This document shows, one piece after another, positions 9,822 through 30,831 of a DNA stretch of 64,000 nt; the stretch's first letter is position 1, and the number at the start of each line of letters is the position of its first letter. The stretch comes from Nitrososphaerota archaeon (GTDB lineage: Archaea > Thermoproteota > Nitrososphaeria_A > Caldarchaeales > Calditenuaceae). Position numbers and translations under genes: made by a program. A model generated the notes under the pieces. The model was given only the letters and a program-made list of their open reading frames with translations. It ran no database searches and was not told the DNA's origin. Location of the stretch: assembly GCA_038845265.1 (NCBI GenBank), contig JAWBQR010000004.1, forward strand, positions 45,978 to 109,977, in the 5' to 3' direction.

Positions 9822-9895
9822 GAGCCCCGGGCGGGGGTCGAACCCGCGACCTGCCGCTTACAAGGCGGCCGCTCTACCACTGAGCTACCGGGGCC
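9822..9895 (-). tRNA. tRNA-Thr (anticodon UGU)
   Basis: Reverse complement: acceptor GCCCCGG/CCGGGGC, D-arm GCTC-AGTGGTA-GAGC, anticodon stem GCCGC/GCGGC with loop CUUGUAA (anticodon UGU), T-arm GCGGG-TTCGACC-CCCGC. No encoded CCA. Confidence 0.85.
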
Positions 9896-10942
9896 ATTAT
9901 TAAGAAATTAAAAAAGAACGATATTACTTTTTGTCTCTTCACTTACTCAGAGATAAAACCCAAATAATTACAATCCTTCAATCAGTGTTCTTTAGACAGC
10001 CATCATGGTCCTTATGTACATCAGAAAAGACTTGCTCAGCGCTCAAGATCATCTTCATTGACTCCGACTGGCCAGACACATCATCGCTGATATGAGTCTG
10101 TATCTTTTTGTTATTTATGTTTTCTGTTGCCTCTTATTAGTCAATCATCATTATCGATATCTTGCTTTTTGATAACTTTTTATTATTCCAGGCAAACCTA
10201 AGGGCTAGTACGTAGAGTAGAAACTACTGATTCATCTCTATGCCGACAAGAACTTGGAAAAAGGGCGTCCCATAAATTCAGGCGTTCTATTTAGACTATA
10301 AGCATGGATATAATCTGTGGAATCTATGCTGGTCTGCCGATAGAGAGGCTTACGAATTCTTTATATTCATCGACTTTGGCCGATATATTATGATGCTCAG
10401 AATTTTTTAATTGTTTCGCTAGTGTTTTCAGGGCTTCCAAACCTAGTATGGTCCCCACGTATGGAACTTAATCTTGGAGTGTGGGAAGCTAATCCTCCTA
10501 TAGACGTGTACGCCATGAGGACCGGTGAATGTGCGACTGAGTTAGAAGAATACTTAATAAATACTTTGCTAATTGCTTTTGAGATTCTAGACAGGCGGTG
10601 ATTCGTTTTATTTCAGAGATGGGAAATAAATATGATGGTTTATTCGCACTTCAGTTTAGAGAGACAAACAACGAGGACGAGGCGGACGTAATTTTTTTAT
10701 GCTGACCAACTAGGTATGGGGATTGGAGTGATAACATTTTTATCTAATACGCCTCCTTTTGAAGTAGTAGATTGTGAAGTCGGCATAGCAAACATATATG
10801 TGCGGTCTCTGGTTATACTTCATGAACTCTATCATACACTTGGAACCCATAAAACCATGAAAGAGGCTTCCTTTTGGGAATGAATGCAATTGGACAGGTT
10901 CATTATCGCAAATTCTAAATGCAGAATGACGGTTTTATATCT

Positions 10943-12127
10943 TTATTTTTGAGGAGTATCTGTTAGCTTCATTTTCAAAGGCAGTGGCATGTGTCTTCTG
11001 CTTGTCGAGATGTATATGATGTCTTCGTCTCTGATTCCTGCATCGATAAGTTTCTGGTCGTCATTCAGTCTTTTTGTGCCGTGGAGTATCTCTGGGTCTG
11101 GAAAGCTATATCTGAGGGCTATTATCTCTTTAAGAGTCTGGATAGTCCAGTCGGGATGAGCATTTATTGATTGTACCTGTTCTTCTACGTCCCCGCATAC
11201 TATGCATTCCTTCATTCTTGCGAGTTTTACTCTTGTTAATCTTGAATGTAATGCGTCATAGACAAACAACCCAGTATCGGGCTCGCCCAGTCTGCCTTTG
11301 TGTAAAAGTTTTATGACCTGAGTAGTCATGAGTCCTGCAATTGTGGCTGAGACGCTCTGAATTGCAGGCGACTTAGGTTTCAGCCTATCCCTCACTTCAA
11401 GGATTAATTTACTAAGTTCTGGAGCTAATTCATTAATAATATTCTCTAACTTACTATACTTTAGGTCGTATATCGTCTTAATATTTAATCTAAAAAGCTC
11501 TTCCGCTACTTCTCTGCTGATTACTATGCCTTGTTCCATCAGGTCCTTTACTAGCTCATCCGGACTCCTTCTCCTAAGCGTGCATTCAGCCAATCTCTCT
11601 TCACGTGATATGAGGTTTTCACCATGACATTCTAGACATGCAGTTCTTCCAGGAATCACTACTTGGACATTTCCATAAAATCCCTCAATGCTCCCATCGA
11701 CCATAGGCTTACCTAGCGAGACGCAGAGGGAATTTAACCATCTCCTAACACCCCAGCTATCAAGACACGAGCAGACTACGTCAGAATCCTCGAAGACTTT
11801 CTCAGGCAACTGTCTCACATCTGAATTGTAATACACAACGTCGACGAATCTATTCATACTTTTTATTTTTTGAGCAGCTACCTCACTTTTAGGCTTACCA
11901 ATATCATTCTCAGTGAATAGCATCTGTCTACTCAGGTTGCTTAACTCTACAACATCATTATCAATCAATACTAATTTTCCAATGCCCATTAATGCTAAGT
12001 TCTTAGCTACCTCGCAACCAAGTGCACCTACTCCCACAATAGCAACCGCACCATTCTGAACGGAGCTCTGATCCCATCCAGGAGTCCTTGCCTGCCTATC
12101 GTATCTTTCTTGAATTTCTGTGTCCAT
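10943..12127 (-). CDS. E1-like ubiquitin-activating enzyme (ThiF/MoeB adenylation domain + Zn motif + C-terminal possible ubiquitin-fold domain)
   Basis: RYDRQ...AIVGVGALGCEVAKNLALMGIGKLVLIDNDVVELSNLSRQ is the E1/MoeB nucleotide-binding fold. CLECHGEN and CIVCGD form the paired CxxC zinc motif. About 90 aa after the second CxxC could be a ubiquitin-fold/β-grasp domain like the C-terminal domain of eukaryotic E1s (inferred from position, not from a recognised motif). It is the last gene of the Ubl-E2-E1 operon. Confidence 0.85.
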   Translation of the reverse strand: MDTEIQERYDRQARTPGWDQSSVQNGAVAIVGVGALGCEVAKNLALMGIGKLVLIDNDVVELSNLSRQMLFTENDIGKPKSEVAAQKIKSMNRFVDVVYYNSDVRQLPEKVFEDSDVVCSCLDSWGVRRWLNSLCVSLGKPMVDGSIEGFYGNVQVVIPGRTACLECHGENLISREERLAECTLRRRSPDELVKDLMEQGIVISREVAEELFRLNIKTIYDLKYSKLENIINELAPELSKLILEVRDRLKPKSPAIQSVSATIAGLMTTQVIKLLHKGRLGEPDTGLFVYDALHSRLTRVKLARMKECIVCGDVEEQVQSINAHPDWTIQTLKEIIALRYSFPDPEILHGTKRLNDDQKLIDAGIRDEDIIYISTSRRHMPLPLKMKLTDTPQK

Positions 12128-12133
12128 GTTGTT

Positions 12134-12628
12134 TCAAAGATATACTGATGAGCTCTCAGGAGTGGCATAGAGATTTATGTATTGTCTAACCCTAGCAATG
12201 AATCGCTCTGGCCAATTCTTCATCTCGTGGGCTGCCCATGCATTTAGGGGATCGTCAGGGTTAGGGTTCGTCAATAGATTTTTCAAGGCTTCTATTACTG
12301 ATACAACATGCATATTGGGATACCAGTCCTTGTTAAGTATAGACTCACATATCCTAGCAGGAACCTCATCTGTAAAGTTTGGATGCCAGATCCTGGTGTG
12401 CCAAACTACCTGTGGAGGTGTGAATGGAAATGACCGCTGCAAAAAGATCTCAACGACGAATACTCCGCCCTCATATATCCCAGTACCAATTATTGTCCCC
12501 TTATAGTGTGTCAAATCTCCATATACAGCGTCGAAGGTAGGCTCATAGTTCCTGATTAACTGGTACTCTTGTGCTAGGCGCTTCTCCCACTTTGCCTGTG
12601 AGAGCATGCCTACCTCCGACGACTCCAT
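12134..12628 (-). CDS. E2-like ubiquitin-conjugating enzyme (UBC fold)
   Basis: Canonical UBC active-site block WHTRIWHPNFTDEVPARICESILNKDWYPNMHV (HPN motif, catalytic Cys, W-x-P). Length 164 aa. There is a 6-nt gap to the E1 gene and a 2-nt gap to the Ubl gene. Confidence 0.85.
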   Translation of the reverse strand: MESSEVGMLSQAKWEKRLAQEYQLIRNYEPTFDAVYGDLTHYKGTIIGTGIYEGGVFVVEIFLQRSFPFTPPQVVWHTRIWHPNFTDEVPARICESILNKDWYPNMHVVSVIEALKNLLTNPNPDDPLNAWAAHEMKNWPERFIARVRQYINLYATPESSSVYL

Positions 12629-12630
12629 GA

Positions 12631-12867
12631 CTATCCACCTACTGTCCTAGTGATCAGGACTAACTTGTCTCCTTCTGCTACGCCTGCTGAAGAAAGTGTT
12701 TCAGTGTCGTTCAGCGCACGGCCTTTATAGGTCAGACGAGTATCATCAGGCCTTAGCTTCTTCATAGCGCAGACACGCATCTTTATGGCGCCTATACTAG
12801 CTGTCGGAGGCACATCTAACTCAATTGGTGGGCCACCACCGACTGCCGGTACTATCCGGATCTTCAA
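12631..12867 (-). CDS. ubiquitin-like small modifier (beta-grasp), C-terminal Gly-Gly directly followed by stop
   Basis: 78-aa protein MKIRIVP...GDKLVLITRTVGG*. It starts with a beta-strand (K-I-R-I-V), has a hydrophobic patch region and ends in a GG C-terminus with no pro-peptide. It is the first gene of the operon with E2 and E1. Confidence 0.8.
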   Translation of the reverse strand: MKIRIVPAVGGGPPIELDVPPTASIGAIKMRVCAMKKLRPDDTRLTYKGRALNDTETLSSAGVAEGDKLVLITRTVGG

Positions 12868-13056
12868 ATCTACTCAACGGTTTTTTAGCCAGTGGCATAT
12901 AAAAATGTTAACTTAACTCCAGAAGCTAGTCATGGCTACATTATCGATGTAGCACACCACCATTGAGGTATTCTCTACAGAGTCTTAAGAAAATACATAT
13001 TTAGCAGTTAAAAAAGCCGAGTTTATAGGCAAGCTTAACATATATATTCCAAAGAA
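12868..13056. promoter_or_regulatory. divergent promoter region between Ubl-E2-E1 operon and JAMM gene
   Basis: A TATA-like element on the minus strand (complement of GCATATAAAAATG, 12895-12907) sits ~30 bp upstream of the Ubl start. TATA-like TTTATAGG (13022-13029) sits ~30 bp upstream of the JAMM start, implying near-leaderless mRNAs. Between them is the inverted repeat CTACAT-tatcg-ATGTAG (12936-12952). Confidence 0.4.
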
Positions 13057-13674
13057 TTGCGGGTTAGGATATTTCCCGTGGCGTTGGGTAAAGTTATCTA
13101 TCATGCATCAACTAGCCCTAATGTTGAGGTGGCAGGATTATTGCTGGGCAAAGAGACGAGAGGAATAGTTGAGGTGTGGGACGCTGTTACTGGGCCACAG
13201 GAGGGGCACGCTGGATATGTAAAATTAAATGAGGAAGTCATGGCGATTGTAGCAGAAAAATTAATGACGCTTGGATTAGATATTTACATAGTTGGTTGGT
13301 ATCATTCTCACCCTGGATATGGTCTCTTTCTCTCCGCAATAGATGTCCGCACCCAGCTTGCATATCAAGCCTTATATCCAAAATCAATAGCGTTAGTAAT
13401 CGATCCATCCAAGTTTATAGAGCATGGAGACATAACTGATGTTGCATTTAAAGTTTTTAGAGTAGACGGTAAATTAGGAGTAATCGAAGTACCGTCATCC
13501 ATAGGCATGGATAGGAAAAAGGTATTGGAGTCTACACTTGCCGCTCTTAAAGGGTTAAACATTGACAACTCATTTCTGCTTCAAGAGTCGCCCTTAATGT
13601 TTGACAGAGCTAAGAAAGCCCTAGTAGATGTCGGTAAGAAGATATTTAGACGTGAAGTGGTGAGCAAGAAATGA
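13057..13674 (+). CDS. JAMM/MPN+ metalloisopeptidase (Rpn11/deubiquitinase-like) with C-terminal extension
   Basis: JAMM motif E-x(n)-HSHPGYGLFLSAID (EVAGLLLGK ... WYHSHPGYGLFLSAIDV). The gene is divergent from the Ubl operon across 189 bp. The ORF begins at TTG 13057, with a TATA-like TTTATAGG about 31 bp upstream. About 70 extra C-terminal residues lie beyond the MPN core. Confidence 0.85.
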   Translation: MRVRIFPVALGKVIYHASTSPNVEVAGLLLGKETRGIVEVWDAVTGPQEGHAGYVKLNEEVMAIVAEKLMTLGLDIYIVGWYHSHPGYGLFLSAIDVRTQLAYQALYPKSIALVIDPSKFIEHGDITDVAFKVFRVDGKLGVIEVPSSIGMDRKKVLESTLAALKGLNIDNSFLLQESPLMFDRAKKALVDVGKKIFRREVVSKK

Positions 13675-14456
13675 GTGAACGAAAGAAGATAGTAATTAAA
13701 AGGCGTTTATTTGACCAGGCACCAGAAGGCACCTTGCCATTAGTTCCTGAGACTGAGAAACCCAAGGAGAGAGAAGAAGACTTGACTTCTCAGCAACAGC
13801 AACCATTTGAAAATCTGAGCAAACCTCATGATTTATCAATTATTGATGCAGCAATTGAAAGATTTAATGAATTAATGAATAAAATAACTGAAATTAGGAG
13901 TAGGGATAGAACTATGCAGAAAGTTTTCCATAGGCAAGACTTTGTAGATCTAAGAGTGATAAAAAAGAAGCTGGATGAGTTGACAAACATGAGGAGCGAG
14001 GTATTGGCTGATGCCGGGCCAGTCGAGAATCTTCTTAATGAAGCTGTCAGCGTACTGGAAGCAGAGATGGTGAAACTTGAAGAGCAGTTATTTGAAAAAT
14101 TAGTAGAGATTGAATCTATTAGGGATTCTAATAATAAGTTGGAAATAGATAAATCAATACTCGAAAAACTCGAGGAAGAAGCTGACCGTATACGTGAAAA
14201 TATTTCCTCCGTTCATGGAAGAATATCTGAACTCCAATCAAAGATAGAACAGTTGAAGTCATTACCTCAGTCTATTAATGAATTAACTACGAGTGATGAG
14301 ATAGCTGAACCTCTCCTTAGGGATCTTATTTCCAGATTCAAGGATGAGGCAAGGGTCAATTCTGCAATTGAGAAAGTAATGCAAGATGAAGCAGTTCCGA
14401 AGCAATATGCAATAATATATTTGTGGAAAAGGCTCTATAAACCGAAAGTATCATGA
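13671..14456 (+). CDS. coiled-coil protein of unknown function, translationally coupled to the JAMM gene
   Basis: 261 aa, Cys-free. Disordered acidic/Q-rich N-terminus, then long heptad-like helices (ELTNMRSEVLADAG...LEAEMVKLEEQLFEKLVEIESIRD...). Its ATG overlaps the JAMM stop (ATGA at 13671-13674). Confidence 0.55.
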   Translation: MSERKKIVIKRRLFDQAPEGTLPLVPETEKPKEREEDLTSQQQQPFENLSKPHDLSIIDAAIERFNELMNKITEIRSRDRTMQKVFHRQDFVDLRVIKKKLDELTNMRSEVLADAGPVENLLNEAVSVLEAEMVKLEEQLFEKLVEIESIRDSNNKLEIDKSILEKLEEEADRIRENISSVHGRISELQSKIEQLKSLPQSINELTTSDEIAEPLLRDLISRFKDEARVNSAIEKVMQDEAVPKQYAIIYLWKRLYKPKVS

Positions 14457-14513: not shown

Positions 14514-15068
14514 TTGGCGTACGCGTTGCTGTTTTTAGGAATTGATAATTTCTTCTCATTGCTTATTAGTAATGTTCTTCATCTCGTCGCGCCATTCATG
14601 CTAATTCTGGGCTCGATTCTGGCTTTTACAGGGCGTAGGCTAATTAAGCTGCTTGTATTTTTTGCCGGTGGACTATTAGGCGGTGCGATGGCATATTTTC
14701 TTGCGTTGGATATATTTGGAGAGACTTGGGCATTAATAATAAGTATAGTTGGATTCGTAGGTATCGGATTGCTCTGTGTTGCTTTTATTCCAATTGTTTT
14801 TGGCATATCGATAGGGTTCTTGGCATATCATGCAGCGGGTGTATTTTTTGAAAATGTATTGATCTGTATTATTGTGGGAGTTGTTGCGTTTGTAATTGGT
14901 ATACTTCTCTACAATCACGTTCTTTCGATCATTACCGCAATTGTCGGTGGGTCATTAATACTTCAAGGTCTTGTCTCATTAGGGATACCTACATACACAT
15001 CAATTATAGTTACATTCTTATTAATAATCGCTGGAGTTGTATTTCAGTTTCGCCAACTTTCTAAATAG
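14514..15068 (+). CDS. small polytopic membrane protein (4-5 TM), unknown function
   Basis: 184 aa made almost entirely of hydrophobic helices with GG/GxxxG packing motifs. Same strand and 57 nt downstream of the coiled-coil gene. Confidence 0.5.
   Translation: MAYALLFLGIDNFFSLLISNVLHLVAPFMLILGSILAFTGRRLIKLLVFFAGGLLGGAMAYFLALDIFGETWALIISIVGFVGIGLLCVAFIPIVFGISIGFLAYHAAGVFFENVLICIIVGVVAFVIGILLYNHVLSIITAIVGGSLILQGLVSLGIPTYTSIIVTFLLIIAGVVFQFRQLSK

Positions 15069-29339: not shown

Positions 29340-30831
<1,492 letters not shown>

Follow-up and report, generated by a model that had tools for sequence, protein, structure and literature searches.

We analysed a 64,000-nt stretch of DNA (hereafter the window) from a Nitrososphaerota archaeon (Calditenuaceae; Caldarchaeales; assembly GCA_038845265.1, contig JAWBQR010000004.1, positions 45,978-109,977), which carries a compact gene cassette for a ubiquitin-like protein (Ubl), an E2 and an E1, facing a divergently transcribed JAMM/MPN+ metalloprotease of the Rpn11 type. 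This cassette is very probably a Calditenuaceae-like orthologue of the ubiquitylation system of Candidatus Caldiarchaeum subterraneum ('Cluster I'), derived by ancestral loss of both linked RING genes. The arrangement itself had been described in an earlier note made from the sequence alone, and its open reading frames (ORFs), its spacers of 2 and 6 nt and its 189-bp divergent region were recovered exactly as claimed there. For comparison, we used 86 loci, comprising 80 species representatives (L007-L086) and six strain copies of the window cassette (L001-L006). ORFs were called in L007-L086, and all 86 loci were searched with the window proteins and with hidden Markov models (HMMs) built from the loci. 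The loci of relatives are 12-kb stretches, and of the source genome the analysis covered the 64-kb window; the C. subterraneum reference for all identities is the metagenome-assembled genome (MAG) locus L066.

The identification of the conjugation components rests on Pfam matches far above chance and on the presence of the catalytic and adenylation residues, as the earlier note had expected of a beta-grasp Ubl, a UBC-fold E2 and a ThiF-type E1. The Ubl matches the Pfam ubiquitin family (PF00240, E=1.7e-12; score 47 bits, cutoff 25) and aligns over residues 1-78 with the crystal structure of C. subterraneum ubiquitin, CsUb (6fj7, E=2.5e-35); human ubiquitin is also matched, and ThiS and MoaD models are absent among the Pfam matches. 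The protein ends ...TRTVGG-stop (Gly77-Gly78) and is encoded in its mature form, so that the earlier description of a pre-matured Ubl holds. The E2 covers positions 1-139 of the 140 of the UQ_con profile (PF00179, E=6e-29), and among solved structures it is nearest to eukaryotic UBC4/5 and E2D enzymes (E ~1e-22). Its motifs H82-P-N84, C94 (the catalytic residue) and W102-x-P104 are invariant in 18 homologs; loop 4 reads 'FPF' and loop 7 'WYPN'.

The E1 belongs to the ThiF family (PF00899, E=5e-62) and contains the motifs G32xGxxG, C164xxC167, C182 (within 'ECTLRR') and C308xxC311, every cysteine being invariant in 40 homologs. It is laid out as a ThiF/Rossmann adenylation core, a zinc site made up of the two pairs C164xxC167 and C308xxC311, a small helical insert that bears the catalytic Cys182, and a C-terminal ubiquitin-fold domain (UFD). 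Among solved structures, it comes closest to the active adenylation domains of yeast and human Uba1 (E ~1e-42); C182 of 'CTLR' is the last residue aligned and falls against the 'PLCTLRS' stretch of yeast Uba1, a motif that holds the catalytic cysteine of Uba1. An AlphaFold model computed with 40 homologs (predicted local distance difference test, pLDDT, 87; predicted template modelling score, pTM, 0.81) has as its top Foldseek matches UBA3, the catalytic subunit of the NEDD8 E1, with a template modelling (TM) score of ~0.70 over ~420-450 alignment columns. UBA3 is composed of an adenylation domain, a Cys-domain and a UFD.

The E1 tail (aa 313-394), in which the earlier note had suspected a ubiquitin-fold domain of about 90 residues, measures ~82 residues and weakly matches the Pfam ubiquitin family (E=0.0014, aa 322-376). 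Of the E1 homologs listed, over half have PF00240 among their precomputed domains, and an hhalign comparison of 63 E1 C-termini with 56 Ubls of the cassette family gave 98.2% probability (E=2.8e-14). In the model, the tail folds as beta-alpha-beta-beta-beta with a pLDDT of ~88-92. Altogether, the profile comparisons, the model and the structural match to UBA3 indicate that the tail is a ubiquitin-like beta-grasp, which presumably recruits the E2. A C-terminal UBL domain has been recorded for archaeal E1s of 'Cluster I/II' by Hennell James et al. 2017 (PMC5654768 and supplement).

The divergent gene encodes a JAMM protease (Pfam JAB PF01398, E=6e-17) with the motifs E24, H83-S-H85 and S93-x-x-D96. 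Over aa 1-169 it matches the structure of C. subterraneum Rpn11, CsRpn11 (6fju, E=1.3e-49), followed by eukaryotic CSN5 and Rpn11 at ~1e-20.

Compared with L066, the window proteins show collinear, full-length identities of 76% for ubiquitin (Ub), 61% for E2 (63% to a database E2 labelled C. subterraneum), 51% for E1 and 47% for Rpn11 (over 198 aa), and we therefore regard the four genes as orthologues of CSUB_C1473-C1476. The C. subterraneum operon consists of CSUB_C1473 (Rpn11), C1474 (Ub), C1475 (E2), C1476 (E1) and C1477 (srfp) (Nunoura 2011; Hennell James 2017; Fuchs 2018), and the order Ub-E2-E1 with a divergent JAMM recurs in ~60 Caldarchaeales loci. With one genome per species, the E2s nearest to that of the window come from uncultured Nitrososphaeria (95-97%) and from 'Candidatus Calditenuaceae', 'Caldarchaeales' and 'Calditenuis' (74-81%); Wolframiiraptor, Terraquivivens and Caldarchaeum (59-69%) and Asgard archaea (43-50%) are more distant. 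Because of this ranking, we place the organism among the Calditenuaceae-like Caldarchaeales (Aigarchaeota), the order of C. subterraneum. The lineage had been called clearly not Caldiarchaeum; it belongs to the same order and shares unlinked rRNA genes with it, only the G+C content being different (~42% in the window, 51.6% in C. subterraneum). A complete archaeal 16S rRNA gene lies in the window at 29340-30831 (+), without any 23S gene in the 64 kb, and the rRNA genes of C. subterraneum are likewise unlinked (PMC3082918).

At least 23 public contigs carry an identical E2. In six NCBI MAG loci, Ubl, E2 and JAMM are identical and the E1 is identical or 99% identical, and the neighbouring carAB, aCPSF1 and purine/uridine phosphorylase-family (PNP_UDP_1) genes are kept; assemblies with the identical cassette include GCA_038855195.1 and GCA_038872595.1. 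Hence the locus is not the undescribed occurrence that had been considered: it is orthologous to an already well-described one, so that its novelty falls while its identification as a eukaryote-type Ub/E2/E1/Rpn11 system of the Caldiarchaeum kind stands, on orthology and on the matches to solved structures.

The C. subterraneum system has been reconstituted biochemically and partly crystallised, and the window locus adds no new kind of system. The C. subterraneum orthologues of E1 and E2 form thioesters and auto-ubiquitylate with Ub-GG, no E3 being needed, and ubiquitylation of the substrate Rad50 in vitro required srfp (PMC5654768). CsRpn11 cleaves pro-Ub and conjugates, and it does not process the SAMPs of C. 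subterraneum (PMC6043591). The window locus resembles this system in the order Ub-E2-E1, in the divergent Rpn11 followed by a coiled-coil gene, in the catalytic residues, in the UBL domain of the E1 and in a mature Ub of 78 residues ending in TRTVGG. It differs in that its Ub is made without the 9-residue propeptide, so that Rpn11 is not needed for maturation, in that srfp, p103, p302 and a second RING-bearing ORF are missing, and in loop 7 of the E2, which reads WYPN instead of WSPS.

Loci of the Wolframiiraptor type (L040, Ca. W. gerlachensis; L035, Ca. W. sinensis) share with the window a GG-stop Ub and the Ub-E2-E1 order with a divergent JAMM, at identities of ~54-57% for E1 and 65-67% for E2. 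They differ in keeping both RING E3 genes and in a loop 7 of the form WSP[ST], and no homolog of the coiled-coil protein encoded next to the window JAMM (CC261) was detected beside their JAMM by BLAST. The clusters of Asgard archaea (Heimdallarchaeota, Jordarchaeum and others) also have a eukaryote-type E2, with 46-50% identity, and in the clustered locus L074 Ub, E2 and E1 occur together with RING proteins; yet they come from a different phylum, are far more divergent and are often dispersed, most of the fetched Heimdall loci having no adjacent Ubl, E1 or JAMM. With the NEDD8 and ubiquitin cascades of eukaryotes, the window shares the E1 fold and domain order of UBA3, the Uba1 'CTLR' context of the cysteine, the HPN-Cys core of E2s such as UbcH5/E2D, and a JAMM that is closest to CSN5/Rpn11 after CsRpn11. 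In contrast to eukaryotes, one chain of 394 aa makes up its E1, which presumably dimerises with itself and has a minimal Cys insert in place of a large Cys domain; furthermore, its genes form an operon, and its Rpn11 stands alone rather than in a lid complex. The SAMP/UbaA/HvJAMM1 system of Haloferax has in common with the window a Gly-Gly Ubl, activation by a ThiF-family E1 and removal by a JAMM, but it works without an E2, uses a MoaD/ThiS-type Ubl and has an E1 with no UFD.

Judged from the compared loci, what still distinguishes the window's lineage is the clade-wide absence of linked RING genes, along with a Ub encoded in mature form and a changed loop 7 in the E2. In the general Caldarchaeales locus, the coiled-coil gene and Rpn11 are directed leftward and Ub, E2 and E1 rightward, followed by srfp, p103, p302 and the second RING-bearing ORF. 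The srfp RING has 75-90 aa (Cys7-8/His2), p103 is an ORF of ~103 aa after srfp, and p302 one of ~300 aa on the opposite strand. The second RING-bearing ORF, of ~240-270 aa, joins a strongly hydrophobic, probably membrane-spanning N-terminal part to a C-terminal RING and is most likely the 'second E3' of Fuchs et al. (PMC6043591); it lies ~1.5 kb past srfp in most RING-bearing loci (L026-L072; at 9063-9863 in L066). Counted among loci with at least 400 nt of flank downstream, an srfp-type RING follows E1 in 41 of 41 informative Caldarchaeales loci outside the window's clade, most of which have the second RING ORF too. Within the clade, no RING was found within 6 kb in any of the 17 informative species loci (from L007-L025) or the six strain copies L001-L006.

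The absence extends through the window, where the earlier note had likewise seen no RING E3. A six-frame search of the 64 kb with an HMM of 39 srfps found nothing, its best hit (E=0.017) falling within an unrelated ORF and being rejected as chance. None of the ORFs of at least 20 aa in the 1 kb after E1 is Cys/His-rich, and HMMs of p103, p302, the membrane RING E3 and a Calditenuis 187-aa protein had no match in the window. A RING profile search of 5.8 billion proteins yielded 22 matches, all of them srfps of RING-bearing clades, this search being insensitive for a domain of ~45 residues and giving no genomic context. A neighbour-joining tree of E2 and E1 groups the RING-less loci together, with all RING-bearing Caldarchaeales as their sister group, and RING genes are present in the Asgard outgroup locus; srfps have also been reported in Asgard clusters (PMC5654768). 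Since the RING-less loci are monophyletic and both the Asgard outgroup and the published Asgard clusters have RINGs, the parsimonious reading of the tree is a single loss of both linked RING genes at the base of the clade. In a limited literature search, we found no description of this clade-wide RING-less architecture.

Layout varies further within the clade. Calditenuis and its relatives (L017-L022, L025) have Ub-E2-E1 without an adjacent JAMM or coiled-coil gene and with a conserved gene of ~187 aa after E1, and in L023 (Aigarchaeota SKYB10) E2-E1 stands without an adjacent Ub, JAMM or coiled-coil gene, with WYAN in loop 7 of the E2.

Sixteen of the 17 informative loci of the window's clade have an adjacent Ub, and in all 16 it is encoded as GG-stop. 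Among the RING-bearing loci, the Ub is of the GG-stop form in 15 and tailed in 26. Tails of 4-20 residues after Gly-Gly occur in Caldarchaeum (9 residues in L066), Terraquivivens, Pelearchaeum and Geocrenenecus, together with RING genes; loci of the Wolframiiraptor kind combine a GG-stop Ub with RING genes; and in the window's clade a GG-stop Ub goes with the absence of RING genes from the locus. A Ub precursor with an Rpn11-cleaved tail, a C. subterraneum feature that is variable in the family, is thus not what the window encodes. Because the Wolframiiraptor-like loci also encode a GG-stop Ub, pre-maturation of Ub is not unique to the window's lineage.

Loop 7 of the E2 reads W[YFHE]PN in 16 of 16 RING-less loci and in none of 41 RING-bearing loci, which have WSP[STA] (32), WRPG (6) or W[KR]PP (3). 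Loop 7 is one of the RING contacts of the E2, and changing a Ser in it to Gln impaired the reaction that depends on srfp in vitro (PMC5654768); the correlation between loop 7 and the missing RING is suggestive. The proposal that the cassette might be a variant is therefore borne out in part: the RING-less locus, the GG-stop and loop 7 speak for a variant at the level of the clade, but the GG-stop is shared with Wolframiiraptor-like loci.

L007 and L008, the closest distinct relatives, differ from the window so much at synonymous sites that these are saturated (proportion of synonymous differences, pS, 0.6-0.9), and we therefore give pS and the proportion of nonsynonymous differences (pN) rather than dN/dS ratios. 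In this comparison pN is 0.012-0.035 for the Ubl, 0.013-0.027 for E2, 0.08-0.12 for Rpn11, ~0.12 for E1 and 0.13-0.16 for the coiled-coil protein, with 0.05-0.08 for aCPSF1 as a housekeeping comparison. By these values, Ubl and E2 are under very strong purifying selection, which puts them among the best-conserved genes of the region, and the system is clearly maintained; the low pN of both rules out a decayed system.

By analogy with C. subterraneum, we infer a thioester cascade followed by deconjugation. Ubiquitin would be translated with its mature Gly-Gly end and need no precursor processing. The E1 would bind ATP, adenylate Gly78 and take ubiquitin onto Cys182 as a thioester, and its ubiquitin-fold domain would recruit the E2, to whose Cys94 ubiquitin would be handed. 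From the E2 thioester, ubiquitin may be transferred to lysine residues, either on targets or on the cascade enzymes, and the Rpn11-like JAMM would strip it from conjugates, probably aided by the coupled coiled-coil protein. In this scheme, the ancestor of the clade would have lost both the srfp after E1 and the membrane-anchored RING protein further downstream. The final transfer without a linked RING could be E2-autonomous, mediated by an adaptor, or carried out via an unlinked E3.

Several points weigh against an orthologous system that has lost its linked RINGs and works in this way. The biochemistry of the cascade rests on C. subterraneum orthologues, which belong to another clade, and given that srfp was needed for Rad50, a RING-less cascade might only auto-modify or depend on an unseen E3. 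The RING search reached 64 kb of the genome and the 12-kb loci of relatives, and the search of 5.8 billion proteins was insensitive to so short a domain. Loop 4 of the E2 ('FP[FY]'), a RING contact, is unchanged in the RING-less clade, and loop 7 varies among RING-bearing clades too (WRPG, WKPP). Furthermore, as the RING-less loci form a single clade, the correlation of loop 7 with RING absence may reflect one or a few events and is for this reason only suggestive. Finally, the E2 and E1 genes of the deposited MAGs bear generic automatic names, the identical E1 being entered as 'ThiF family adenylyltransferase [Nitrososphaerota archaeon]'.

The first alternative is a canonical three-enzyme cascade whose RING E3 has been relocated elsewhere in the genome and which works as in C. 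subterraneum; we consider this quite possible, if somewhat short of an even chance. Modification of a substrate in C. subterraneum needed srfp, and loop 4, essential for srfp binding in vitro, has been kept in the RING-less clade (PMC5654768 for the former). E3-like genes were found in 6/6 Aigarchaeota bins by Hua et al. (PMC6053391), other parts of the locus are mobile, as the Calditenuis loci without an adjacent JAMM illustrate, and a search reach of 64 kb leaves room for a gene further away. Yet the matches of the RING profile search included no srfp-like protein from contigs of the clade, those of 1,550,299, 857,045 and 733,637 bp among them; srfp, p103, p302 and the membrane RING are absent all together from locus and window; and the loop 7 at the RING contact is altered throughout the clade.

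It is also conceivable, and we put it forward tentatively, that the cascade is minimal and E3-independent, with transfer by the E2 alone (as by Ubc9 of SUMO) or through a non-RING adaptor such as CC261. Both RING genes are missing from the locus across the clade, the change in loop 7 lies at the RING interface, Ubl and E2 are under strong purifying selection despite having no linked RING, and E1 and E2 of C. subterraneum auto-ubiquitylate without an E3 (PMC5654768). On the other side, substrate targeting without an E3 finds no positive support, and that a gene is missing from 64 kb counts for little. CC261 is also present in RING-bearing clades and so did not arise as a replacement, and no similarity to a ligase or adaptor could be detected in it. 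The most far-reaching version, in which the clade's cascade would consist of Ub(GG), E1, E2 and Rpn11 only, having dispensed with RING E3s and with precursor processing, and in which an E2 with a remodelled loop 7 would act autonomously or with a non-RING adaptor, seems to us rather unlikely. On balance, we lean slightly towards a genuine loss of the srfp-type E3.

That the genes form a horizontally acquired defence island, akin to the bacterial anti-phage Ubl operons (Bil, CBASS Cap2/Cap3, 6A-MBL-like), is highly improbable. The component set (Ubl, E2, E1, JAB) is the same, the E1 core matches the PADLOC 'E1-E2' (Cap2) model to E=2.8e-21 and the JAB weakly (E=2.4e-4), and a strain-variable segment lies directly downstream of E1. 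But the PADLOC scan gave no match for Ubl or E2, the E1 is matched only over its generic adenylation core and far less strongly than it matches Uba1 and ThiF, and E1 and E2 are separate instead of fused. The cassette has the same G+C content as the surrounding genome, and the locus is vertically conserved and syntenic with carAB, aCPSF1 and the PNP_UDP_1 gene across the order. We rejected a defence system on the PADLOC scan and on this order-wide housekeeping synteny. A prokaryote-type sulfur-carrier or SAMP system (MoaD/ThiS with MoeB/ThiF/UbaA, for thiolation or E2-independent 'sampylation') has a negligible probability: although the E1 core is of the ThiF family with NCBIfam ThiF/MoeB/UbaA matches at E=1e-32 to 1e-39 and a MoCF_biosynth gene lies 10 kb away, those scores are far under the cutoffs (134.6 vs 275; UbaA 113 vs 450), the Ubl is a PF00240 protein close to CsUb, CsRpn11 leaves SAMPs unprocessed (PMC6043591), and the conserved UBC E2 between Ubl and E1, together with the Uba1-type Cys motif and UFD of the E1, refutes it.

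The features of the cassette and its flanks are listed below.

Features of the ubiquitin cassette, in positions of the window
Feature	Position	Strand	Description
Ubl (ubiquitin)	12631-12867	-	78 aa, TTG start, first gene of the Ub-E2-E1 operon
E2 (UBC fold)	12134-12628	-	164 aa, ATG start
E1	10943-12127	-	394 aa, ATG start
E1 C-terminal ubiquitin-fold domain (UFD/UBL), predicted	10946-11191	-	aa 313-394
Rpn11-like JAMM/MPN+ metalloprotease	13057-13674	+	205 aa, TTG start, divergent from the Ub operon
CC261 coiled-coil protein	13671-14456	+	261 aa, 4-nt ATGA overlap with JAMM
Divergent intergenic region	12868-13056	.	189 bp
TTTATA hexamer for Ubl	12898-12903	-	~30 nt upstream of TTG
TTTATA hexamer for JAMM	13022-13027	+	~30 nt upstream of TTG

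We infer that both TTTATA hexamers are archaeal TATA boxes, which would drive leaderless or short-leader transcripts. A scan for sigma-70 promoters and terminators gave nothing above the expectation from shuffled sequence, this type of scan not being applicable to archaea. The 2-nt spacer separates the Ubl stop from the ATG of E2, and the 6-nt spacer the E2 stop from the ATG of E1. The 3' end of the 16S rRNA reads ...GGATCACCTCCT (it ends CACCTCC), to which AGGTG is complementary, and the Gly-Gly codons of Ub with the stop (GGT GGA TAG; 12629-12645, -) hold an AGGTG 8-12 nt before the ATG of E2. The reactive terminus of Ub and a putative Shine-Dalgarno-like element of E2 are thus the same nucleotides. 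No obvious Shine-Dalgarno precedes E1, and its start only 6 nt past the E2 stop suggests that its translation is coupled to that of E2. The signals read from the sequence fit a tight co-expression of the cassette.

The gene coupled to Rpn11 encodes CC261, in which a linker rich in Pro and Glu joins an N-terminal KKIVIK motif to a ~150-aa helical bundle, and the C-terminal segment is conserved. The JAMM had been assigned to an operon with novel partners; this did not hold, as 32 Caldarchaeales loci, from the window's clade and from the Caldarchaeum and Terraquivivens lineages, have a CC261 homolog next to Rpn11. The homologs have in common an N-terminal KKIV[IL][KR] motif and the conserved C-terminal segment, and the family HMM matches the window at E=2e-89. 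Pfam, NCBIfam and PADLOC yielded only coiled-coil noise for CC261 (Rad50, SMC, LmuB), its hhalign probability never exceeded 37% with any other locus-linked family, and a Foldseek search of the PDB with a single-sequence AlphaFold model (pLDDT 65) produced no match better than E=0.06. We regard CC261 as a candidate cofactor or adaptor of Rpn11. The srfp RING proteins have a similar N-terminus, M[KR]IV[IV][KR]E, and its likeness to KKIV[IL][KR] may reflect a shared short docking strand or coincidence.

Between CC261 and aCPSF1 lies TM184 (14514-15068, +), a hydrophobic and probably multi-pass membrane protein of 184 aa without family assignment, whose homologs occur only in L001-L006 and in the nearest relatives L007 and L008 (61-67%). 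We considered whether it could be a RING-less remnant of the membrane RING E3 and rejected this, the membrane-RING HMM having missed the window and homologs being confined to L001-L008.

Directly after the E1 stop, an ORF-free and strain-specific segment of ~810 bp (10124-10933) forms a variable hotspot near the tRNA-Thr gene (9822-9894). In L002 and L006, which are otherwise 99% identical, it is replaced by ~2.75 kb with a 620-aa methyltransferase/ATP-grasp fusion gene, and their E1 has 400 aa compared with 394 in the window; L007 and L008 carry a gene of ~500 aa at this position. The segment does not appear to be a decayed gene, as tblastn with the genes of the strain variants found no remnant inside it. 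A candidate C/D-box small RNA lies at 10033-10088 (-), with a match to Rfam snoPyro_CD of 25 bits (E=0.033, under the gathering score) and further weak matches to sR1 and sR23. A stretch of ~61 nt comprising this candidate is 92% conserved directly after E1 in L007 (7718-7777), where the flanks do not align, and the stretch between E1 and tRNA-Thr is probably a real small RNA gene. Elsewhere in the window, a 100-nt Rfam tRNA match at 52508-52607 (+), missed by ARAGORN, is probably an intron-containing tRNA.

The coupling of CC261 to Rpn11 across lineages makes this protein a candidate cofactor in a system that is already tractable in vitro. More generally, the eukaryote-type ubiquitin system of the Aigarchaeota is a reference point for the pre-eukaryotic origin of ubiquitylation, and loss of RINGs across a whole clade would matter only if whole genomes confirm that no E3 is present. 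If there were indeed no E3 anywhere in these genomes, the clade would be a natural experiment on E3-independent transfer, with an archaeal Rpn11 that acts as a deconjugase only. A RING-free cascade, if true, would constitute a natural minimal system of E1, E2 and deubiquitinase, and a test case for a pre-E3 ancestor of eukaryotic ubiquitylation.

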